Assembly: GCA_041738235.1 (NCBI GenBank)
Contig: JBGSQF010000013.1
Span: forward strand, 1 to 61,344
DNA from: Minisyncoccia bacterium
Lineage (GTDB): Bacteria; Patescibacteriota; Minisyncoccia; Moranbacterales; GCA-2747515
DNA length: 61,344 bases
Direction of reading: 5' to 3'
The notes below the pieces were generated by a model. The model was given only the letters and a program-made list of their open reading frames with translations, had not been told where the DNA came from and searched no databases. The position numbers and the translations under genes were made by a program. Of the stretch, positions 30,212 through 56,263 are shown in pieces. Each line of letters opens with the position of its first letter. The stretch's first letter is position 1.

Positions 30212-32428
30212 TTGGATAAAGAAATAGCTGTGTTAAAGGTTATACAGAAAGTGCGATATATCGTACGGTCGTCTTGGGCAACATTCCAGAATGAAGGAAT
30301 AATAAGACTTTTTCTTCGTGCGTTCTCTTTCCTTGTTTATGGAAAGGGTGTTTTAAATGTGCGAGAATATGAAAAAAGAAGGAAAGACTTCGATGCATTG
30401 CATGGGATTACTTTGTCGGATGCCATACATTGTCTTAGTGGCGCTGAGGGGGAGGACTACACTAAAGAAAGGTGGAAATTTAGGATGGTTGATATTGTTA
30501 TTCCAATTTACAATGGAATGCAATTTCTGCCTGCTTTATTTGAGAGTGTACTAAAAAATTCCGATATTCCCCATAGGCTAATAGTTGTAGATGATGCAAG
30601 TTCTGATGTTAATGTTTGGCCGTTTTTAGAGGAGATGAAGGAAAAATTTGGTGAGGAAAGAATGATCCTGCTAAAAAATAAAAAAAATTTAGGCTTTGTT
30701 GAAACTGTCAATAAGGCGGTTGGTTATACCAAAAACCATTTTGTTCTACTCAATTCTGATACAGAAGTTCCGAGAGAGTGGCTCTCTCGTTTAATGTTGC
30801 CCATTTTTGAAAATAAAAATATAGCGAGCGTTACACCGTTTTCTAATTCGGCAACTATTTTCAGTTTTCCTATCCCCCAACAGGATAATGATCTATTAAC
30901 TGGGTATTCTTTGAGTGAGATCGATGCGGCTTTTCGTCTCGTGTCAGGTTCGAGGAATAGAATAGCCGTCCCAACTGGGATGGGCTTTTGTATGGGGATA
31001 AACAAAGAAGTAGCTAACGAAATAGGAATGTTCGATGCTGAGAAATTTGGTAGGGGATTTGCTGAAGAAAACGATTGGTGTCAGAGAGCTATCAAGAGGG
31101 GATATAGAAATATAGTAGCGCCAAATGTTTTTGTTTATCACAAACATTGCGCTTCTTTCGATAGTGAAGAAAAGAAACAACTGATCGAAAAAAATCTAAA
31201 GACACTGACGGAAACGTATCCTGGTTATCATAAAGATGTACATGACTTTATAGTAAAAGATCCATTTAAGAAGATACGGGATATTGTTTTGTTTCTCATC
31301 TTGGCAAATCCGAAAAATGAACCAGATCGTCCCATATTGGTCTTTAACCATCTTTTAGGAGGAGGATCAGCTGATTTTATGACAAGAGATATGCAGAATC
31401 GGGTTCAGAGGGGTGCTCAAATATTGGAAGTTTCTTATGATGCACGCAGAAGTGAATATTTTCTCGCTTTTTATTCGGGACCCCATACGATTCGTTATAG
31501 GTTTTCTGATTGGAAAGAATTCGATGATCTTTTTCAGTATTTTGCAATTCAGAAGGTGGAAGTAAACCATATTATTTCATTTAAATATCCCTTGGAGACA
31601 ATCTCCTGGATCGATAGGGTTCGTAGAAATAGAGGTGTTCCTGTAAAATTATACTTACATGACTACTATGCGATATGTCCGAATTACACCTTGGTAAATG
31701 AACTTGGTTCTTACTGTGGTATACCGAATCTTCCAAATGAGCTATCAAGATGTACCACGTGTTTATCTAAGACAAGAACACAGTACACTTTATATACCCC
31801 AGGGAAGGTAGATATCATGCAATGGCGCAAGACTTGGGGACATTTTCTGCTCAATCTGGATGAAATAGTTTGTTTTTCTGAGTCATCAAAAAATATCTTA
31901 TTACGAGCGTATCCGCAACTTACCTCTCGGAGTCTCATAGTTCGCCCACATGAAGTGAATTATCTTGATGAGATTTGGAAGGGACCACGTCGTAGAAATT
32001 CGAATGAACCTTTGAACGTGGGTGTTTTGGGGGGGATCAACTTTGTGAAAGGAGCATCTCTGTTGAAGGAACTTGCTTTAATTATCAAGAAGGGAGAAAT
32101 AAACATGCAAATAGTCATTATTGGAGAATATGTGGAAAAACAGAAGCACAAAAATATTACGGTAACGGGGAAATTTCAACTTAAGGACATTGCTCATCTT
32201 ACAAAAAAATACAAGATTGATATTTTCTTTATTCCTTCGATCTGGCCTGAAACATTTTCTTTTACTGCAGAAGAGGTTATGCAGATGGGATATCCTTTAA
32301 TCGTATTTGATATTGGTGCCCCAGCCGAGAGAGTAAGAAGATATAAAAGGGGGATCATTGTCTCTGAGGTTAGTGCTCAGTTGGCCTATAAGGCACTTCA
32401 AAAATATAATGAAAAGTTAAAAATATGA
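30212..32428 (+). CDS. two-domain glycosyltransferase (N-terminal GT2 plus C-terminal GT-B/GT4-like)
   Basis: GT2 part: VDIVIPIYNGMQFL...LIVVDDASSD, NSDTEV. GT-B part: VGVLGGINFVKGASLL..., PSIWPETFSFTAEEVMQMGYPLIVFDIGA. TTG start, 738 aa. Confidence 0.8.
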   Translation: MDKEIAVLKVIQKVRYIVRSSWATFQNEGIIRLFLRAFSFLVYGKGVLNVREYEKRRKDFDALHGITLSDAIHCLSGAEGEDYTKERWKFRMVDIVIPIYNGMQFLPALFESVLKNSDIPHRLIVVDDASSDVNVWPFLEEMKEKFGEERMILLKNKKNLGFVETVNKAVGYTKNHFVLLNSDTEVPREWLSRLMLPIFENKNIASVTPFSNSATIFSFPIPQQDNDLLTGYSLSEIDAAFRLVSGSRNRIAVPTGMGFCMGINKEVANEIGMFDAEKFGRGFAEENDWCQRAIKRGYRNIVAPNVFVYHKHCASFDSEEKKQLIEKNLKTLTETYPGYHKDVHDFIVKDPFKKIRDIVLFLILANPKNEPDRPILVFNHLLGGGSADFMTRDMQNRVQRGAQILEVSYDARRSEYFLAFYSGPHTIRYRFSDWKEFDDLFQYFAIQKVEVNHIISFKYPLETISWIDRVRRNRGVPVKLYLHDYYAICPNYTLVNELGSYCGIPNLPNELSRCTTCLSKTRTQYTLYTPGKVDIMQWRKTWGHFLLNLDEIVCFSESSKNILLRAYPQLTSRSLIVRPHEVNYLDEIWKGPRRRNSNEPLNVGVLGGINFVKGASLLKELALIIKKGEINMQIVIIGEYVEKQKHKNITVTGKFQLKDIAHLTKKYKIDIFFIPSIWPETFSFTAEEVMQMGYPLIVFDIGAPAERVRRYKRGIIVSEVSAQLAYKALQKYNEKLKI

Positions 32429-34515
32429 CGAAAAAAATGACGTTTCTCCTTTTTATAGCGATGTTCTTTTTTCCGGTAAAGGCGTTTGCTTTGACTTTGG
32501 AAGTGCCTTCTCAGTACGGTTCTATCAAGGATGCGGTGAAAGCGGCTTCGGTTGGTGATCGGATAGAGGTTGCTCCTGGGACGTACTATGGGAACATTGA
32601 AATAAGAAAGAACATCGAGTTGGTCTCTACTGGGGGCTCATCTCAGACGATCCTCGATGGTCAAAATTCCGGTTCGGTAGTTCGTTTTGCTAATGCGCAG
32701 TTCGATGGCGTAACTGTTCCAAGAATTGCAGGGTTCACGATTCGTGGGGGAAACAGTGTCGAGGGACAAGGGGGAGGGATCACATTACAGACTACTGATG
32801 TGATTATTGAGGATAATATTATAACAAGCAATAACTCTAAGATGGATGGTGGTGGGATATTGATAAATCAGGATTCCCAAGCTATCCTTCGACGTAATTC
32901 AATAGTGTCAAATACCGCTAAGCGGTTTGGTGGTGGAATCTTCATCGTGGGTGCTTCACATCCTCTCTTGTATGAAAATACGATCTCAAATAACAGCGCT
33001 CAGGGAGCGGTGGTTTCGGCTGGCGGACCAAGTGGAGGGGGTATATTCGTTGACGGAAATTCTTCTCCACAGATCGTGAATAATCTTATTGAGGACAATG
33101 AAGCGGAATTTGCTGGTGGAGGAATTTCTTTGCGAGTCGGATCAGCTTCTGTTGTTGAAGGGAATACTATCTCTAGGAACAAGTCAGCGTATGGTGGAGG
33201 GTTGCATATAGAAACGGAAGGCACTGGTCCAAAGATCACTTCAAACACGATAACAAATAATCAGGCAAATTTGATCCCCAAATATTCTGGATCGGGATAT
33301 GGTGGGGGTATTTCCATTTACAATAGATCTACCCCAATAATATCTGATAACACAATATCAGAGAACTTTGCTGCGCAAGGAGGTGGTGGAATAGTAAGTA
33401 GTGAAAATGCAGACTCTGTTGTTACAGGGAACACTATTTCTAATAATTCAACGACAACATCTTCCGGTTACTATGAAGGGGGTGGTATTTATGTGGCAAG
33501 TTCCACCATGAGAATCAATAATAATGCAATTTATCTTAATGGGGCGAGGTTGGGGGGTGGAGTCGCGCTTTTAGACGGTGCAATTGTTACAATACAAAAC
33601 AATACCATTGTGAAGAATATCTCCCCGTATACCCCAGAAAGACCTTCGGGAGGGGGTATATTTGTTCGGAGTCTTGCGACGAGTGCGAATATAGTGAACA
33701 ACATTATAACGCAGAATCAAGAGTATCAGATCTTTGAAGAAACAAAGCGAGCATCTTTTCGTTTTAATATGGTCAATAATGATAGTCGCGGAATATATTA
33801 TAATTGGAACTCAGGAGCTATAACCAATATTGCCAATCTAGATGCTAGTAGTTTGATTGATGCATCGGATAACTTTAGTGGGATTGAATCATTTCAAAAT
33901 CCTACTGGGAATGATTTCCGTCTTACAATGTTGTCTGAAGCTATTGATAAATCGGGTATTGCCACTCTTTCTAGCTATGACCGTAGAGGATTCTTTCGTA
34001 CGGGAACCAAGCCTGATGTCGGAGCGTATGAATATACTACGGCATCCAGTAGTCCATCATTGGTATATCGTTTCTGGAGTGATACGTATAAGCACCATTT
34101 TTTTACCATATCAAAAAGTGAGAGAGATCAGATAATGAGTACCTATAAAAATAAAGAATGGAGATATGAAGGGATAGCTTTTCGTGCGTATACACTAACT
34201 GATTGTTCTTCTGAGAGAGTATATCGTTTTTGGAGTGATACATACCGTGGGCATTTCTATACTATATCTTCAGCCGAAAAGAACTTAGTTATAAGCTCTT
34301 ACCCTGATAATGTATGGCGTTACGAAGGAGAGGCTTATTGTGCAAAATCTTCAAGTTCTGTAAATGCAGTGCCTCTATATCGTTTTTGGAGTGACACGTA
34401 CAATGGACACTTCTACACCGCGAGCTCTGCGGAAAAGAATTTTATAATCCAGAACTATCCTAGTAATATTTGGCGGTATGAACAAGTCGGATATTATGTT
34501 TATCCAGAGGTATAA
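32425..34515 (+). CDS. secreted right-handed parallel beta-helix (PbH1) repeat protein with three C-terminal YRFWSDTY..HFYT modules
   Basis: Signal peptide MTKKMTFLLFIAMFFFPVKAFA. Many ~22-aa turns with GGGI and N..I..N. ATGA overlap with the upstream GT. Confidence 0.8.
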   Translation: MTKKMTFLLFIAMFFFPVKAFALTLEVPSQYGSIKDAVKAASVGDRIEVAPGTYYGNIEIRKNIELVSTGGSSQTILDGQNSGSVVRFANAQFDGVTVPRIAGFTIRGGNSVEGQGGGITLQTTDVIIEDNIITSNNSKMDGGGILINQDSQAILRRNSIVSNTAKRFGGGIFIVGASHPLLYENTISNNSAQGAVVSAGGPSGGGIFVDGNSSPQIVNNLIEDNEAEFAGGGISLRVGSASVVEGNTISRNKSAYGGGLHIETEGTGPKITSNTITNNQANLIPKYSGSGYGGGISIYNRSTPIISDNTISENFAAQGGGGIVSSENADSVVTGNTISNNSTTTSSGYYEGGGIYVASSTMRINNNAIYLNGARLGGGVALLDGAIVTIQNNTIVKNISPYTPERPSGGGIFVRSLATSANIVNNIITQNQEYQIFEETKRASFRFNMVNNDSRGIYYNWNSGAITNIANLDASSLIDASDNFSGIESFQNPTGNDFRLTMLSEAIDKSGIATLSSYDRRGFFRTGTKPDVGAYEYTTASSSPSLVYRFWSDTYKHHFFTISKSERDQIMSTYKNKEWRYEGIAFRAYTLTDCSSERVYRFWSDTYRGHFYTISSAEKNLVISSYPDNVWRYEGEAYCAKSSSSVNAVPLYRFWSDTYNGHFYTASSAEKNFIIQNYPSNIWRYEQVGYYVYPEV
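34060..34512 (+). repeat. three tandem ~47-50 aa protein modules (DUF5648-like)
   Basis: The three modules are LVYRFWSDTYKHHFFTISKSE..WRYEGIAF, RVYRFWSDTYRGHFYTISSAE..WRYEGEAY and PLYRFWSDTYNGHFYTASSAE..WRYEQVGY. Confidence 0.7.
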
Positions 34516-34658: not shown

Positions 34659-36026
34659 ATGAAGAAGAATGTGAACAGGGAATCTTTATTTTCGCAACTA
34701 ATTTTATTTTTGAGGAGGGCTGACCTTTTTTATTTTTCTGTCTTAGGAGTTCTTTTTTTTGTTATTTTTAGGGCAAATATTTTGGTACCGCTTGTCAATG
34801 AGGACTTTGATCTCAACGCATTCGGTAAAACGACAACTCAGCTATTTGATGCTTGTGTTCACCAGTATCTTGGGTGGAATGCTAGAATTGGGGATATTTT
34901 ATCCTTGATTCTGAGTACTATCCCAATCGATATTTACAATACTTTTAATGCAGTTGCTACGTTGCTTTTTATATTGGTAATGGTATATATCGCAAAGATT
35001 CCTTTGAACAGGGTTTCAAAAATAGCTCGGGTAAATGCGGTGATCACAGCTTTCTTTTTGCTTGTATTTCTTGTGTATAGACCTGGGGAAGTTTTTTTGT
35101 GGAGAACGGGTTCTGCAAATTATTTCTATCCAGCTCTTTTTATCTTACTTTTTTCTATACCGTGGGTTCATTTGTTTTTTAACGGGAGGGATGTCTTTTC
35201 TGAAATAAAGACACGTTTATTAAGGAATGCGGGATCTTTACTATATATTGTTACGGGTATTGTTATTGGTCACGCAAATGAGAATAGCTCGCCTGTCATA
35301 GCTTTATTTTTGGTGATAAATCTAACCGTTCAGTTTTTGAGGCGTGAAAAAATTAGGTTTTGGATGATCGGGTCGTTTGTTAGTCTTTCTATTGGAGTAA
35401 TTCTTTTATTATTTGGACCCAGTACGCAACATCGTATAGAATTTTACTCGAACGTATTTGGTGTTTCATCCTCACCGGTAAGTCTATTTCTTGATAATGT
35501 TATCAGTGTTACATACTCGTTCTTGCACTTTGGGGTCTATGTTTTTGTACTCATGGTGTTTACATATTTTTTGGTAAAATCAAAATCGAAAAAAATCTTT
35601 TTGCGGTTTTCCATTCTTTATTTTCTTCTGGCTTTATTTTGTGCATTTATTCTGGCTGCAGCGCCTTACCAGGAGCCTAGAGCATACTTTATATCTTCTG
35701 TATTTCTTATATTGGGCGTGATCCATTGTTTGTATTATTTGCAGGATTATGAAAAAGAAGTGTTATTTTTAACGGGTATTGTTATTATTTTTTATTCCCC
35801 ATTCCTTTTGGGTGAATATGGAAATATGCAAAAGAGGCATTATTGGCAATTAGAGCGAATTCGTGTTATTGAGGAATCATTGGATGATACTGGAAATATA
35901 CTGATCCCTAAAATGCCAATGACCTCATCACAGCTGGTTCTTGTGGGTGGGACTGAAGATGAGTCCATAAGAATGAGTCGTTACTTTCACCTATCTCAGG
36001 ACAGAAGGGTGTTAATTGAAAAATAA
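34659..36026 (+). CDS. polytopic membrane protein (about 12 TM), candidate GT-C-type transferase, polymerase or ligase
   Basis: 455 aa, hydrophobic throughout with one larger loop. Last gene of the glycan island. No family recognised with confidence. Confidence 0.55.
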   Translation: MKKNVNRESLFSQLILFLRRADLFYFSVLGVLFFVIFRANILVPLVNEDFDLNAFGKTTTQLFDACVHQYLGWNARIGDILSLILSTIPIDIYNTFNAVATLLFILVMVYIAKIPLNRVSKIARVNAVITAFFLLVFLVYRPGEVFLWRTGSANYFYPALFILLFSIPWVHLFFNGRDVFSEIKTRLLRNAGSLLYIVTGIVIGHANENSSPVIALFLVINLTVQFLRREKIRFWMIGSFVSLSIGVILLLFGPSTQHRIEFYSNVFGVSSSPVSLFLDNVISVTYSFLHFGVYVFVLMVFTYFLVKSKSKKIFLRFSILYFLLALFCAFILAAAPYQEPRAYFISSVFLILGVIHCLYYLQDYEKEVLFLTGIVIIFYSPFLLGEYGNMQKRHYWQLERIRVIEESLDDTGNILIPKMPMTSSQLVLVGGTEDESIRMSRYFHLSQDRRVLIEK

Positions 36027-36224
36027 GCGTTAACAAGATAGGACGATTCGCATTATTATTTTATTGTATAACCGTATATAATTTTTTTTAATAGTCTATT
36101 TTGAGCTTCTTTCAAACGGTTCTTCTAAAAAGGATTATTTTAATTTTAGTAGGTTTCTGGGATGTCTAAAGTGCTTGCCTTACTCTTTTTTCGTGGTATA
36201 CTGGGGAAATTGAAGGTTATAGGG

Positions 36225-38012
36225 ATGTCGAAACGAACTCATAAGAAAAATCTGAGAAACAATATGCAAAAGAAAGGAACTTGGTGGGCGCTTGGGGGGA
36301 TACTGCTTTTGACGGTCATAACGGTTGTTTTTGTTTTTCCACAATTAGTGTCATTTATTCCGCCGGCAAAGGCGGCGATCGATAAATTGAACATCAAATT
36401 GGGGTTGGATCTTCAGGGAGGTGCACGTCTGGAATATGAGGCAAAAACGGATAGTCTTGCGAGTGACCAGGTACAAAGTGCTCTTGATGCCGTGCAAGGG
36501 GTAGTAGAACGTCGTGTAAATGCTATTGGTGTAGGAGAGCCAAAGGTACAACAAGCAACTTCGGGAACTTCACATCGTATTATTGTGGAGATCCCGGGAG
36601 TGAGTGATGTCCGTGATGCAAAAGATAAGATAAAAGATGCGCCACTTCTTGAATTTCGAGAAATGCCCGCAGAAAATCCCGAAGGACAAAAGATCATTGA
36701 TCAATTGAATGCAAGTTCCAAAAAGAACGCGGAGGATACTCTTCAGAAGGCTCTTGCCGGAGATGATTTTTCGGAGTTGATCAAGTCTTCAAGTCCTGAT
36801 CCAAATGCAGTTGAGGCTACTGCTGGGGATCTGGGATTTGTTTCAAAGGGGAAACTCTTACCAGAATTCGATGCTGTGCTTTTTGAAAAGGACCTGGCGG
36901 TCGGTGCTGTCTACCCAGAATTGGTGGAAACGGATTCTGGATGGTTTATTCTCAAGAAGGAAGAAGAGCGTTTTGTAAAGTCTGGGACAGAAGAAGTGGT
37001 TGATGGTCCTGGTGATGGAATAGAAAAACAGGTTCACGCAAAATATATTCCTTTTCGCAAGATGCAACTTTCTGATATTCCGGAGTTGGCATATACAAAG
37101 ACAGGACTTACAGGGCAATATCTTAAGTCGGCAACGGCAAACTTTGCTCAACAACAATATGGACTTTCTGAACCGATGGTGTCGATGCAATTCAATGACG
37201 AGGGAGCAAAAATGTTTGAAGAGGTCACACGTCGCAATGTCGGAAAGCCATTGGCGATATTTATTGATGGAGAACTGGTGACGGCTCCGACCGTGAATGA
37301 TGTGATCGCGGGTGGGCAAGCTCAGATCACTGGAAAATATACACTTGACCAAGCCAAGGAGTTGGCAAGGCGTCTCAACGAAGGAGCATTACCGGTTCCT
37401 TTGGAGCTCGTGGGGGAGGATATCATTAGTCCTTCTTTGGGTCATGAGGAGTTGGTCGCGAGTGTTAAGGCAGGCCTTATGGGGCTTATAGCGGTAATAC
37501 TTTTTGTGATGGTATACTATCGCCTTCCGGGAGTGATCGCAGGATTTGCCTTGGTGTTATACTCACTTTTTATTATCACATTGTTCAAACTTACAGGACT
37601 GGGTGGGGCGCAAACACAGATCACACTGACCCTTTCTGGAATAGCGGGATTTATTTTGTCTGTGGGAATGGCTATTGACGCCAATATTTTGATCTTTGAG
37701 CGAATGAAAGAAGAGTTGCAATCAGGGAAAGGAATTCGGCAGTCGACGCAAGAAGGGTTCAAGCGGGCATGGACGAGCATTCGAGATAGTAACCTTTCAA
37801 CAATTCTTACTTCCCTTATCCTGATCGGCGTGGGCACTGGATTTGTTCAAGGATTTGCTTTGGTCTTGATGTTGGGAGTGATCGTGTCGATGTTCTCGGC
37901 AATGTTCGTGACGCGCGTTATTCTTCTAGCGCTACCACTGGAAAAGTTGGAGAAATTTACATTTCTTTTTCTGGGAAAGGGAGTTCAGGATCGAGAAGTT
38001 AAGAATCGATAA
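36225..38012 (+). CDS. secD: protein translocase subunit SecD with parvulin-like insertion
   Basis: LGLDLQGG, P1-base region LTGQYL...GKPLAIFIDGELVTAPTVN...GALPVPLE, and a C-terminal 6-TM bundle (GIAGFILSVGMAIDANILIFERMKEE). ATG 36225 preferred over 36162. Confidence 0.9.
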   Translation: MSKRTHKKNLRNNMQKKGTWWALGGILLLTVITVVFVFPQLVSFIPPAKAAIDKLNIKLGLDLQGGARLEYEAKTDSLASDQVQSALDAVQGVVERRVNAIGVGEPKVQQATSGTSHRIIVEIPGVSDVRDAKDKIKDAPLLEFREMPAENPEGQKIIDQLNASSKKNAEDTLQKALAGDDFSELIKSSSPDPNAVEATAGDLGFVSKGKLLPEFDAVLFEKDLAVGAVYPELVETDSGWFILKKEEERFVKSGTEEVVDGPGDGIEKQVHAKYIPFRKMQLSDIPELAYTKTGLTGQYLKSATANFAQQQYGLSEPMVSMQFNDEGAKMFEEVTRRNVGKPLAIFIDGELVTAPTVNDVIAGGQAQITGKYTLDQAKELARRLNEGALPVPLELVGEDIISPSLGHEELVASVKAGLMGLIAVILFVMVYYRLPGVIAGFALVLYSLFIITLFKLTGLGGAQTQITLTLSGIAGFILSVGMAIDANILIFERMKEELQSGKGIRQSTQEGFKRAWTSIRDSNLSTILTSLILIGVGTGFVQGFALVLMLGVIVSMFSAMFVTRVILLALPLEKLEKFTFLFLGKGVQDREVKNR

Positions 38013-38026
38013 AGTCTGAAGCTTAT

Positions 38027-38923
38027 ATGAAAAACATCATTCAAAATCGGATCTATACGTATATATTTTCCGGAACATTGGTCCTAGTGAGCGTTGTGGC
38101 TCTTTTTGTGTGGGGGCTTCGTTTTGGTATTGACTTTCAGGGAGGAACGACGCTGGAAGTGAGCGCTTCAAAAGAAGGGGTTGTTTCTATTGATAAACTG
38201 CGCGAGGATCTTACAGCTAAGAATTTTCCAGGACTTTCAATTCAGACATTGAAGAGTGGAAACATTCTTGTCCAATATGGTGTGGTAGAGGGAGGAGGAA
38301 GTGATACGGTATTGGACGCATTGCAGTCGCAGGACCAGGGGGCCCAGATCGTTGATACCAAAACAGTTGGTGGAGTGATCTCTGGGGAAATGCGCAGTAA
38401 ATCAATGCAAGCGGTGATCGCGGCTGTCATTGGTATCGCGCTGTATATTGCATGGTCGTTTCGAAAGGTTTCTCGACCTGTTTCTTCGTGGTTGTATGGT
38501 GCTGGAGCGCTAGTGGCTTTAGTTCACGATATTGCCATTACATTGGGAGTCTTTGCGGTTCTTGGACATTTTTGGGGAGTGGAGGTGGATGTGCCATTTA
38601 TTGCGGCCCTCCTCACTATTTTGGGGTATTCGATCAATGATACGATCGTCGTCTATGATCGTGTTCGAGAGAATATTTTTAGACATGGGCGACAAGAGGA
38701 TTTTGAGATGGTGGTCAATCGATCCGTCAATGAGACCTTGGCGCGATCCTTAAATACTTCTATGACCGTGTTAGTGGTTCTCTTGGCGATTATTCTTTTT
38801 GGTGGTCCAAGTATATTTTATTTTTCACTCGCGCTCTTTGTGGGAATTATCGCTGGAACGTATTCCTCGATATTCATTGCTTCAGCCTTGTTGGTAACAA
38901 TAGAAAAGAGATTCATAAAATAA
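38027..38923 (+). CDS. secF: protein translocase subunit SecF
   Basis: GIDFQGGT, INDTIVVYDRVREN, 6 TM helices. Follows secD. Confidence 0.9.
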   Translation: MKNIIQNRIYTYIFSGTLVLVSVVALFVWGLRFGIDFQGGTTLEVSASKEGVVSIDKLREDLTAKNFPGLSIQTLKSGNILVQYGVVEGGGSDTVLDALQSQDQGAQIVDTKTVGGVISGEMRSKSMQAVIAAVIGIALYIAWSFRKVSRPVSSWLYGAGALVALVHDIAITLGVFAVLGHFWGVEVDVPFIAALLTILGYSINDTIVVYDRVRENIFRHGRQEDFEMVVNRSVNETLARSLNTSMTVLVVLLAIILFGGPSIFYFSLALFVGIIAGTYSSIFIASALLVTIEKRFIK

Positions 38924-38928
38924 ATTGT

Positions 38929-39894
38929 ATGCGCGTATTGGTAACGGGTGGATGTGGGTTCATTGGATCTAATTTCATTCATTATATCCTTGAACGTCAT
39001 TTAGAATGGGACGTGGTGAATTTGGACTTACTGACGTATGCTGGAAATTCAGCGAATGTTTCAAAATGGGAAGGGAATGCGCATTATACTTTTGTTCATG
39101 GAGATATCTGTGATCGTGAGAGGGTAAAAGGTGTGATGCAGGGAGTGGATATGGTAGTGCATTTTGCTGCCGAATCACACGTGGACCGTTCGATCGCTGA
39201 TCCGGGTGCATTTGTTCGTACAAATGTATTGGGCACGCAAATCCTTCTTGATGAGGCTCGCGAGGCAGGCGTGAAGCGTTTTCATCATGTTTCAACTGAT
39301 GAAGTTTTTGGGGCGCTTAAACCTGGGGATAAGGCATTTGATGAACATACCCCGTATGCTCCACATAGTCCCTATTCAGCATCAAAGGCAGGATCGGACC
39401 ATCTTGTTCGGGCATATCGTGATACATATGGATTTCCTGTTACTATTTCGAATTGTTCGAACAATTATGGGCCGTATCATTTTCCAGAGAAGCTTATTCC
39501 ATTGGCGATCACGAATGTTCTTCGTGAAAGAAAGGTTCCAGTATATGGAAAAGGAGAGCAGATTCGCGATTGGTTGTATGTTACGGATCACTGTCGGGCT
39601 ATTGATATGATACTCGAGAAAGGGATGGTTGGCGAAACCTATTGCGTGGGAGGGGATAATCAACCAACAAACCTTGAGATTGTCAGAATAATTCTGGATC
39701 GTCTTGGAAAAGGTGAGGAAATGATCGAGTTTGTGAAAGATCGACCGGGACATGATTTTCGATATGATATTGATTACACCAAAATAAAGAGTAAGCTCGG
39801 GTGGAAGCCGAGCGTCACCCTTTCAGAGGGGTTGGATCAAACGATCAGTTGGTACTTGGAGAATCGATCATGGTGGGAACCACTTATAAAATAG
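38929..39894 (+). CDS. rfbB: dTDP-glucose 4,6-dehydratase
   Basis: GGCGFIGSNF Rossmann motif, catalytic YSASKAGSDHLVRAY, 321 aa. Confidence 0.92.
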   Translation: MRVLVTGGCGFIGSNFIHYILERHLEWDVVNLDLLTYAGNSANVSKWEGNAHYTFVHGDICDRERVKGVMQGVDMVVHFAAESHVDRSIADPGAFVRTNVLGTQILLDEAREAGVKRFHHVSTDEVFGALKPGDKAFDEHTPYAPHSPYSASKAGSDHLVRAYRDTYGFPVTISNCSNNYGPYHFPEKLIPLAITNVLRERKVPVYGKGEQIRDWLYVTDHCRAIDMILEKGMVGETYCVGGDNQPTNLEIVRIILDRLGKGEEMIEFVKDRPGHDFRYDIDYTKIKSKLGWKPSVTLSEGLDQTISWYLENRSWWEPLIK

Positions 39895-40003: not shown

Positions 40004-41251
40004 ATGTTCAATCGCCTCTTTATTATCCTACGGCTTGCCGCTCAAAATCTATTTTCCTCGAAAGGAAGAACTTTCTTGACCATCCTGGGTATTATCATTG
40101 GGATCGCCTCGGTCATTATTGTCATGTCGGTAGGAAATAGTGTCCAGTCATTGATCTTGGATCAAGTGAGAAATGTTGGATCAAATCTTGTGGTGGTTAT
40201 CCCTGGAGCCTCTAAGGAAGATGGGCCTCCAGCGGTAGCATTTGGTATTGTAACAACGACACTCATAAATGATGATCTTTTGGCGATACGAAAGAAGAGC
40301 AATGTTCCACATTTGGATTATGCGGCAGGATATTCTCAGGGAAGTGCATTAGTCCGTTATCGCGATCAGAGTTATCAAACTACGGTCATAGGAGTGAGTG
40401 CCGATATGATCAATGTAGAGAATGCTCAAGTTGAAAGTGGGCGTTTCTTTTCTTCTGAAGAGGATGCTGGGCAGAGCAGGATTGCGGTGTTGGGAAGTAC
40501 GCGTGCCAAGGACCTATTTGGATCAGTGAATCCTATTGGTAAAACTGTGCGGATCAAAGACCTGAATTTTAGGGTGATCGGAGTGATGAAAGAGCGTGGA
40601 TCGGCTGCTTTTTCCAACCCTGATGTAAATGTATTCGTTCCTTTGCTTACAGCACAGAATGTGCTATTTGGGAAAAACTATCTGACGTATATTCGAAGTA
40701 AGGTGGATGATGAAAAGAATCTCACGCAAACGAAAGAAGATATCCGAGCACTTTTACGTGACCGTCATGATATTGCGTATGATAGCGAAGAAGATTTTAG
40801 TGTGCGAAGTTTTGATACTGCTTTAGGTATTTTAACAAATGTTACGGATATTTTAAAATATTTTTTGGTTTCGGTTGCATCAATTTCGTTGGTAGTGGGA
40901 GGGATCGGTATCATGAATATCATGTTCATCTCTCTACAGCGGCGTATTCGTGAGATCGGGCTTCGAAAGGCGATCGGGGCTATGAATAGAGATATTGTAT
41001 TTCAAGTGATCGCCGAATCCGTCTTTGTCTCTTTGGTGGGGTCTTTCTTTGGCATTGTATTTGGTATTGCGATAACCTTTTTGACAGCAATTATTATTCA
41101 GCATCTCGGGTATACGTGGACGTTTCTGATCACGCCAACTTCTCTGATGATCGCCGTTGGTATTTCCATCTTGATCGGTATTCTCGCAGGACTCTATCCG
41201 GCACGTTTTGGTGCTCGTATCAGTCCAACAGAGGCTCTTCGGTATGAATGA
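40004..41251 (+). CDS. ABC transporter permease, MacB/FtsX-like
   Basis: N-terminal TM helix, MacB-type periplasmic domain, and a C-terminal FtsX 3-TM with GGIGIMNIMFISLQRRIREIGLRKAIGA. Confidence 0.85.
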   Translation: MFNRLFIILRLAAQNLFSSKGRTFLTILGIIIGIASVIIVMSVGNSVQSLILDQVRNVGSNLVVVIPGASKEDGPPAVAFGIVTTTLINDDLLAIRKKSNVPHLDYAAGYSQGSALVRYRDQSYQTTVIGVSADMINVENAQVESGRFFSSEEDAGQSRIAVLGSTRAKDLFGSVNPIGKTVRIKDLNFRVIGVMKERGSAAFSNPDVNVFVPLLTAQNVLFGKNYLTYIRSKVDDEKNLTQTKEDIRALLRDRHDIAYDSEEDFSVRSFDTALGILTNVTDILKYFLVSVASISLVVGGIGIMNIMFISLQRRIREIGLRKAIGAMNRDIVFQVIAESVFVSLVGSFFGIVFGIAITFLTAIIIQHLGYTWTFLITPTSLMIAVGISILIGILAGLYPARFGARISPTEALRYE

Positions 41252-56190: not shown

Positions 56191-56263
56191 TGCGCTCGGC
56201 AGGAATCGGACCTGCGACCTTCTGGACCGCAACCAGACGCTCTATCCACTGAGCTACGAGCGC
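56191..56263 (-). tRNA. tRNA-Arg (anticodon GCG), CCA not encoded
   Basis: Hand-folded cloverleaf: GCGCTCG/CGAGCGC acceptor, GCTC..GAGC D arm, TCTGG-TTGCGGT-CCAGA anticodon arm, GCAGG-TCCGATT-CCTGC T arm. 73 nt. Confidence 0.85.

Follow-up and report, generated by a model that had tools for sequence, protein, structure and literature searches.

What are some 125 extra residues doing in the extracytoplasmic part of a SecD protein? The question is raised by the secD gene on contig JBGSQF010000013.1 of a Minisyncoccia bacterium (Patescibacteria; assembly GCA_041738235.1), of which we analyzed positions 1 to 61,344, hereafter the window. The extra residues lie between the LEFRE strand (aa 163-167) and the P1 head (aa 311-412) of the window SecD. 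We find that they form a parvulin-family domain, inserted extracytoplasmically in the P1 region between the first and second transmembrane helices (TM1 and TM2), and that this domain is circularly permuted. On balance, we consider it probable that a group of Patescibacterial SecDs carries such a permuted parvulin of ~125 residues at the P1 base/head junction, that it serves in the family as a foldase or holdase acting in cis, and that isomerase chemistry has been lost in the window lineage. SecDF sits near the exit of SecYEG, on the trans side of the cytoplasmic membrane, and a folding factor at this position would meet exported chains as they emerge.

The host protein is SecD: its product gives a full-length equivalog match to NCBIfam TIGR01129 (369.4 bits against a cut-off of 244.4, aa 80-588). 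From 5.8 billion proteins, a search retrieved 7168 relatives, and the tallies given below use the best 120 of these, which are 47-77% identical. The features of the gene and its partner are as follows.

36162-38012, plus strand: secD open reading frame, 616 aa from the first ATG (TIGR01129, 369.4 bits).
36492-36665, plus strand: SecD_1st (PF21760), the N-terminal P1 segment forming the base subdomain, aa 111-168, 51.1 bits.
36678-37058, plus strand: permuted parvulin domain, aa 173-299, delimited from AlphaFold2 (AF2) secondary structure, Pfam and permutation tests.
37092-37397, plus strand: P1 head, SecDF_P1_head (PF22599), aa 311-412, E 9e-30, intact.
37413-37934, plus strand: transmembrane domain SecD_SecF_C, aa 418-591, E 1.9e-14, with the DANILIFER motif and Asp506.
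38027-38923, plus strand: secF, 298 aa, Pfam SecD_SecF_C (E 2.8e-58) and Sec_GG.

Both P1 subdomains, the base (SecD_1st) and the head, lie between TM1 and TM2, and AF2 places transmembrane helices at aa 32-58 and then from aa 428 on. The base segment is closed by the LEFRE strand (nt 36648-36662), whose counterpart in Thermus thermophilus SecDF is 'LEFR'. P161, L163 and F165 are invariant among the 120 homologues, as are D506-A507-N508, the counterpart of the DGNVL motif of T. thermophilus SecDF. Canonical SecDF proteins are the best structural and sequence matches for the full-length window SecD, and those of T. thermophilus (3AQP, 5YHF) and Deinococcus radiodurans (5XAN) have in common with it the LEFR strand, the P1 head, a transmembrane domain with the conserved Asp (DANIL in the window, DGNVL in T. 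thermophilus) and a SecF partner. Unlike these fused SecDF proteins, SecD and SecF of the window are encoded by separate genes, with 14 nt between the secD stop codon and the secF start. They also differ in the distance from LEFR to the head strand, which is ~20-40 residues in canonical SecDF and ~147 in the window SecD, where it forms the parvulin domain. In the alignment with T. thermophilus SecDF, for which the query was the 582-aa translation from the ATG at 36264, query residues 38-156 pair with chain residues 27-138 and query residues 282-555 with chain residues 160-423. There is one insertion site of roughly 105-125 residues, directly after LEFR, and the P1 head aligns from T. thermophilus residue 160 onward.

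A first-pass annotation of this DNA, made from the letters alone, had described the insert as standing in place of, or within, the P1 head and had read the segment TGLTGQYLKSA... as P1 base. Replacement is ruled out by the complete SecDF_P1_head that Pfam detects downstream of the insert, and the TGLTGQYLKSA... segment is in fact where this head begins. The central proposal of the annotation, a parvulin-like domain within P1, is borne out by profile searches. The range it gave, 36670-37080 (aa 170-306), covers the insert, and the peptide it quoted is present as written. Rotamase_3 (PF13616) matches aa 184-268 with an E-value of 4.9e-10 and 40.4 bits against a gathering cut-off of 22.5, and Rotamase (PF00639) matches aa 183-267 with 38.3 bits against a cut-off of 21.7; the Rotamase models score homologues of the window SecD at 75-92 bits. 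Weak NCBIfam matches to PrsA, NifM and PpiC fall on the same stretch. The nearest sequences in the PDB are the parvulin domains of PrsA (1zk6, E 2.2e-5; 4wo7, 6vj6, 6vj4), followed by fungal Ess1 and PpiC. At E up to 1, the Pfam scan of the window SecD gave no SurA_N-family match. The domain is tied to the base/head junction of P1 by a long helix at one end and a beta-strand at the other. We also considered LEFRE itself as the first parvulin strand (beta1) and ruled this out, because SecDs conserve this strand throughout, whether or not they have an insert.

Where, then, is beta1? The canonical parvulin order (beta1 - helices - beta2 - alpha4 - beta3 - beta4) is not the order of the window insert, which runs alpha1 (173-198), alpha2 (203-210), beta2 (223-228), alpha4 (234-242), beta3, beta4 (260-273), a loop and beta1' (287-299). 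The native window sequence leaves the N-terminal, beta1 part of both Rotamase profiles uncovered. The strand, which the first-pass annotation had declared absent ('no HIL strand'), is present on the C-terminal side: the HIL-type strand of the window SecD is QVHAKYIPF (aa 290-298), encoded after beta4. An order in which beta1 follows beta4 makes this a circularly permuted domain. The segments involved are these.

36708-36965, plus strand: stretch matched by Rotamase and Rotamase_3, aa 183-268, profile positions 15-96 of 97 and 34-114 of 116, respectively.
36939-36980, plus strand: beta4 strand, SGWFILKKEEERFV, with Phe262 at 36945-36947 in place of the His of 'GWHIIK'.
36981-37019, plus strand: tip of the beta4-beta1' hairpin, aa 274-286, SGTEEVVDGPGDG, a loop specific to the subclade of the window protein.
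37020-37058, plus strand: permuted beta1' strand, aa 287-299, IEKQVHAKYIPFR, with Tyr295 at 37044-37046.

The consensus of the homologues reads LEFKEE - linker - alpha1 - GEDFxxLAKExSQDPGS - GGDLDFV - FVPEFDxVLF - GEIYPELVETQFGWHIIKK - RGEGD - EVHAxHILF - TGLTGKNLK, the last element belonging to the P1 head. Moving beta1' in silico to the N-terminus extends the Rotamase_3 coverage from positions 34-114 to 15-114 of 116. The same operation raises the Rotamase_3 score from 44.3 to 48.6 bits for the window insert, from 87.6 to 92.5 bits for P0013 and from 80.0 to 87.5 bits for P0037, the latter two being homologues with intact catalytic positions. In local alignments against a tandem-duplicated canonical parvulin, P0013 and the stand-alone protein P0132 (see below) align across the junction of the two copies. 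The window's own insert did not cross this junction, because of its degenerate strand and an extra loop of ~14 aa (SGTEEVVDGPGDG) at the hairpin tip; this loop is found in the subclade P0001-P0007, whereas most homologues have only ~5 residues there ('RGEGD'). The AF2 model of the insert alone (predicted local distance difference test, pLDDT, 89.4; predicted template modelling score, pTM, 0.82) contains the expected parvulin elements. The domain elements are predicted at a pLDDT of ~88-95, and the beta4-loop-beta1' hairpin is confident (~90-97), including the beta1' strand itself (~95).

Is the domain an isomerase? The four positions of the Asp/Cys-His-His-Thr/Ser tetrad, which we take to be the equivalents of Pin1 C113/H59/H157/T152, are occupied in the window protein by Asp213, Tyr295, Phe262 and Thr257, and both catalytic histidines are therefore missing, as the first-pass annotation had recognized (Phe262 lies in GWFILK). 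Among the 120 homologues, the Asp position is Asp in 116 (window Asp213, 36798-36800) and the Thr/Ser position is Thr or Ser in 119 (window Thr257, 36930-36932). The beta4 His is kept in 117, the exceptions being the window protein, P0002 (Met) and P0051 (Gln), and the beta1' His of the consensus 'EVHAxHILF' is kept in 114. In P0002, the closest relative, Met occupies both His positions, and in P0003, P0004 and P0006 a single His has given way to Gln. The missing histidines are thus a recent trait peculiar to the small subclade of the window protein, not one of the family. Family-wide conservation of the tetrad suggests that the domain is, at the family level, an active isomerase and not an inactive one of the PpiD kind. 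The proposal of a non-isomerase, PpiD-like domain in the first-pass annotation hence agrees with the double replacement in the window protein but does not extend to the family. For the window lineage, the residues at these positions indicate that isomerase chemistry has most likely been lost.

How widespread is the insert? A survey of SecD orthologues, already suggested by the first-pass annotation, shows PF00639 in all of the best 120 of the 7168 SecD homologues. Those with names are nearly all 'protein translocase subunit SecD' from metagenome-assembled genomes (MAGs) of Candidatus Moranbacteria or Patescibacteria, and one had been named automatically 'foldase protein PrsA precursor'. We also ran a hidden Markov model (HMM) of the insert on the best 80 SecD loci among contigs representing one genome per species, and it found the insert in 15 of them, 9 of which have two parvulin units. 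These 15 loci are titled Moran-, Kerfeld-, Komeili-, Magasanik- or Peregrinibacteria, 'Parcubacteria' or 'Patescibacteria group', apart from a few MAGs with implausible titles. A fused SecDF (P0138, 905 aa) bears the insert as well. Within the 80-locus set, the insert is absent from SecDs of Saccharibacteria, Nomura-, Davies- and Taylorbacteria and from all SecDs outside the candidate phyla radiation (CPR). The relatives that lack it have a variable, partly low-complexity linker of 20-65 aa at the insertion site (L034, L018, L038, L045, L021), which in L034 is Ser/Thr-rich and lies between LEFK and the head strand; the base/head junction therefore looks like a hot spot that tolerates insertions. 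In a rough neighbor-joining tree of SecD cores, built without support values, the insert-bearing SecDs fall in one CPR region.

We note that several of the MAG titles conflict with the SecDs they carry (L003, L008, L013, L016, L019). L003 (JAACEG010000012.1) is titled 'Lysobacteraceae', yet has 30.6% GC and a CPR-type SecD; L008 (DATJFD010000021.1) is titled 'Binatia' and has 65% GC, with a SecD 52-55% identical to two-unit Parcubacteria SecDs; and several bins titled 'uncultured Gammaproteobacteria' carry CPR-type SecDs. Mis-binning or mislabelling is the likely cause.

The two-unit SecDs (L006, L008, L009, L013, L014, L016, L019, L025 and L042; also P0205) carry the second parvulin unit at the tip of the beta4-beta1' hairpin, that is, at the site of the extra loop of the window subclade. 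In 7 of 7 sequences compared, His is kept in the middle strand (xSHILxC) and in beta4 of unit 2 (GYHLI), and degeneration is seen mostly in the unit 1 beta4 and in the final strand. This pattern suggests that an intact parvulin of canonical order is nested in the hairpin of a degenerate permuted one, an arrangement distinct from two permuted units in tandem. All 7 also have a Cys-x6-Cys pair directly after the middle strand, at the start of unit 2 (in L008 'SHILVCWQGAKNCE'), which may form a disulfide-closed loop outside the cytoplasm, where Pin1 has its substrate-recognition loop.

Where did the permuted parvulin come from? The 147-aa insert, searched against 1.84 billion representative sequences at E up to 1e-3, gave 3270 matches, a mix of SecDs and ordinary parvulin proteins. 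Among the closest non-SecD matches is P0132 (MFH1537155.1), a 'peptidylprolyl isomerase' of a Patescibacteria group bacterium, in which an N-terminal transmembrane segment is accompanied by a chaperone domain of the SurA_N type and a permuted parvulin domain. SurA_N-family matches occur in this and two other stand-alone Patescibacterial relatives (P0147, P0152). The family of P0132 is large, with members from Magasanik-, Kerfeld-, Kuenen-, Doudna- and Nomurabacteria and Saccharimonadia. In this family (P0132, P0147 and the set P0274-P0392), an approximate regular-expression scan finds the permuted motif order (beta4 GYHII, loop, ARHILI) in 87 of the best 120 members, and Pfam parvulin coverage of the stand-alone proteins begins at profile position 14-17, not at 1. 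Their order is thus the same as that of the SecD inserts, to which they are 44-61% identical over the domain. Unlike the window SecD, they are separate, transmembrane-anchored proteins with a SurA_N chaperone domain and intact catalytic histidines. Judged by these similarities, they are likely to be the evolutionary source, or a sister, of the SecD insert, and the permuted parvulin is probably a broader Patescibacterial invention from which the insert was drawn.

The stand-alone proteins also bear on the idea, put forward in the first-pass annotation, that SecD has taken over the job of a separate PrsA or PpiD. Both an insert-bearing SecD and a stand-alone SurA_N+parvulin protein are known, at the lineage level, from Magasanikbacteria and Kerfeldbacteria; a simple replacement of PrsA by SecD is therefore unsupported at that level. 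The insert HMM revealed no further parvulin gene within the 61 kb of the window or in the sequence flanking the 80 related loci. The matches of the insert search also include long proteins made of parvulin units only, with 3-4 matched stretches in P0122, P0139, P0142 and P0171 and up to 12 in P0129 (1299 aa). Three of these, of ~660 aa (P0139, P0142, P0171), were considered as two-unit SecDs and rejected, since the multi-parvulin proteins scanned contain no SecD domains.

What might such a domain do in SecD? Parvulin chaperones act on just-exported chains. The proton-motive force swings the P1 head of SecDF, and this head binds emerging preproteins (PMC5974789). In the family as a whole, we propose that the inserted parvulin would be a foldase or holdase tethered in cis at the Sec exit, to which polypeptides leaving SecYEG would pass after being handled by the proton-driven P1 head. 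In the window lineage, the domain would serve as a binding or chaperone module or as a structural part of P1, and it may be partly vestigial. The SecD insert would then be a covalent version of partnerships between parvulins and the translocon that are elsewhere non-covalent, namely those of PrsA, PpiD-YfgM, SurA-SecDF and the Mycoplasma Mdp dome.

By sequence, the closest solved relative of the insert is PrsA of Bacillus subtilis (1ZK6, 4WO7), a foldase of monoderm bacteria, which likewise has its parvulin domain at the outer face of the cytoplasmic membrane and acts on Sec-exported proteins. PrsA is, however, a separate lipoprotein dimer with a canonical-order parvulin inside a SurA_N-type chaperone domain, whereas the window insert has SecD as its host, no SurA_N, a permuted strand order and neither histidine. 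PpiD of Escherichia coli, together with YfgM, acts at SecYEG as a chaperone anchored in the membrane, and its parvulin domain is catalytically inactive (PMC9643414). It resembles the window SecD in having a parvulin without the canonical active-site residues anchored in the membrane at the translocon exit, and differs in being a separate protein, bound non-covalently to SecY/E/G, with large chaperone domains; moreover, the SecD-insert family is mostly catalytically intact. AlphaFold models of the E. coli holotranslocon have SurA docked through its parvulin domains on the SecDF P1 head (PMC9987972). That contact is transient, is known from low-resolution electron microscopy (EM) and models, and serves delivery of outer-membrane proteins, while the window parvulin is covalently joined beside the P1 head. 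CPR bacteria, for their part, are not known to possess an outer membrane. In Mycoplasma pneumoniae, the PrsA-like proteins Mdp444/436/489 form a dome on SecDF-SecYEG (bioRxiv 10.1101/2025.04.25.650208; 10.1101/2024.09.05.611430), in which substrate density touches the intact peptidyl-prolyl isomerase domain (bioRxiv 10.1101/2025.04.25.650208). As in the SecD family, translocation in this genome-reduced bacterium is coupled to parvulin-type factors located directly on SecDF, some copies in the dome being catalytically intact and others degenerate. The Mycoplasma foldases are large separate lipoproteins that form a chamber, in contrast to the single small domain within the SecD chain of the window.

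A bolder proposal, which we put forward only tentatively and hold to be possible rather than probable, is that SecD of this CPR branch is a 'pull-and-fold' machine. The permuted parvulin would sit in the P1 hinge so that each power stroke presents the chain to the isomerase or chaperone, the two-unit forms would nest an intact canonical parvulin in a degenerate permuted one, and the fusion would be Rosetta-stone evidence for cooperation of parvulins with the SecDF P1 head in bacteria generally. The nested two-unit SecDs would, in that case, resemble SurA, whose P1 domain is inactive and whose P2 domain is active.

The cis foldase/holdase reading has to be weighed against several alternatives. 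The main rival for the window protein is that its domain is a decaying relic, left as a structural spacer or lever at the base/head junction without substrate binding or folding, which we regard as unlikely. Loss of both catalytic histidines in the window, and of one or both in P0002-P0004 and P0006, fits such decay, as does the divergence of the insert: between P0001 and P0002 it is 66% identical against 85% for the rest of the protein, and inserts of the subclade show residuals of -0.05 to -0.12 relative to the intact clade. So does the existence of relatives with just a 20-65 aa linker, some of them nested among insert-bearing SecDs. Yet the insert of P0005, which has both histidines, diverges to a similar excess, so that rate and His loss are only loosely linked. 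The reading frame is also intact, AF2 predicts a confident compact domain (pLDDT 89), and the window protein retains fold and pocket motifs, namely GDLGF with Leu224, Leu232, PEFD, Phe236 in LLPEFDAVLF, G-W, Asp213 and Thr257. It seems to us somewhat less likely again that, with Phe262 and Tyr295 in place of the histidines, the window domain retains prolyl isomerase activity. Asp213, Thr257 and the hydrophobic pocket positions do remain, and double-His substitutions of Pin1 keep function, which suggests a structural role of the histidines. On the other hand, His is kept in 114-117 of 120 relatives, which implies that the histidines matter for family function, and the window has lost both alongside faster divergence; the inactive parvulin domains of PpiD and SurA P1 are precedents for degenerate sites.

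We give next to no credence to the fusion being an artefact, whether an assembly chimera or a chance parvulin-profile match of a P1-head variant. More than 120 proteins from several databases, assembled independently of one another, share this architecture, which also occurs in 15 genomes representing one species each. Homologues reach 75-92 bits with the Rotamase models, and downstream of the insert there is a separate, complete P1 head. What speaks for an artefact is that Foldseek did not recover parvulin structures. With the full-length model as query, it returned only SecDF and RND transporters from the PDB (top matches 5yhf and 3aqp), a result uninformative about the insert, and with the insert model it gave no significant PDB match, the best being the YacD (B. 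subtilis) model 9a7d_B (E 0.35, probability 0.60). We tentatively attribute this null result to the permutation and the long N-terminal helix. It nevertheless leaves the parvulin fold and its strand pairing inferred, and is one of several observations that count against the foldase/holdase reading itself. The AF2 model of full-length SecD has a pTM of only 0.52, too low to place the domain against the P1 head and SecYEG. Several insert-less SecDs are nested among insert-bearing ones in the neighbor-joining tree; the domain is therefore dispensable in some lineages, where on this rough topology it appears to have been lost or never gained. Pin1 tolerates substitution of both histidines, hence their loss is no strict proof of lost catalysis, and the fast evolution of the insert together with the double His loss fits decay as well as a chaperone-only role.

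Full-text literature searches turned up no description of a SecD-parvulin fusion, in line with the first-pass annotation, nor of a circularly permuted parvulin; a description of the permuted stand-alone SurA_N+parvulin family was likewise not found in the searchable literature. The SecD and parvulin combination can already be read from the precomputed Pfam annotation of numerous MAG proteins. What is new is thus the combination and its topology, both components being familiar. How folding factors take over exported proteins from the Sec channel remains a matter of debate, and current evidence on this is indirect: models and low-resolution EM for SurA-SecDF, cross-links for PpiD/YfgM-SecY, and the in-cell Mycoplasma dome. 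A conserved covalent fusion of a parvulin to SecD P1 provides independent genomic evidence, of the Rosetta-stone type, for linked translocation and folding, and offers a minimal single-chain system in which their coupling can be studied. The permuted order, common to stand-alone Patescibacterial chaperones and apparently undescribed, alters the face of the domain that is attached to the host protein. Intact family copies and the degenerate window copy are a natural comparison of catalytic and binding-only roles. For the window itself, the annotation is corrected to a SecD with an inserted, probably non-catalytic parvulin domain.

The start of secD is ambiguous. The ATG at 36162 gives the longest open reading frame and has no obvious ribosome-binding site, the ATG at 36225 has AAGG ~10 nt upstream, and the ATG at 36264 is where homologues begin; AF2 pLDDT is below 50 over aa 1-32. 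A promoter and terminator scan near secDF gave counts not above shuffled expectation. The genes flanking secDF are all related to the cell envelope. Upstream lie the following two.

32425-34515, plus strand: 696-aa right-handed beta-helix protein with a C-terminal DUF5648 domain.
34659-36026, plus strand: 455-aa DUF6056 membrane protein.

Downstream of secF are two more.

38929-39894, plus strand: dTDP-glucose/GDP-mannose 4,6-dehydratase-type enzyme.
40004-41251, plus strand: MacB/FtsX-type ABC permease.

An Rfam scan of the 61-kb window found no rRNA and a single RNA gene, a tRNA at 56191-56263 on the minus strand. GC skew is positive in all 2-kb bins (0.13-0.31), and cumulative skew climbs monotonically over the 61 kb.

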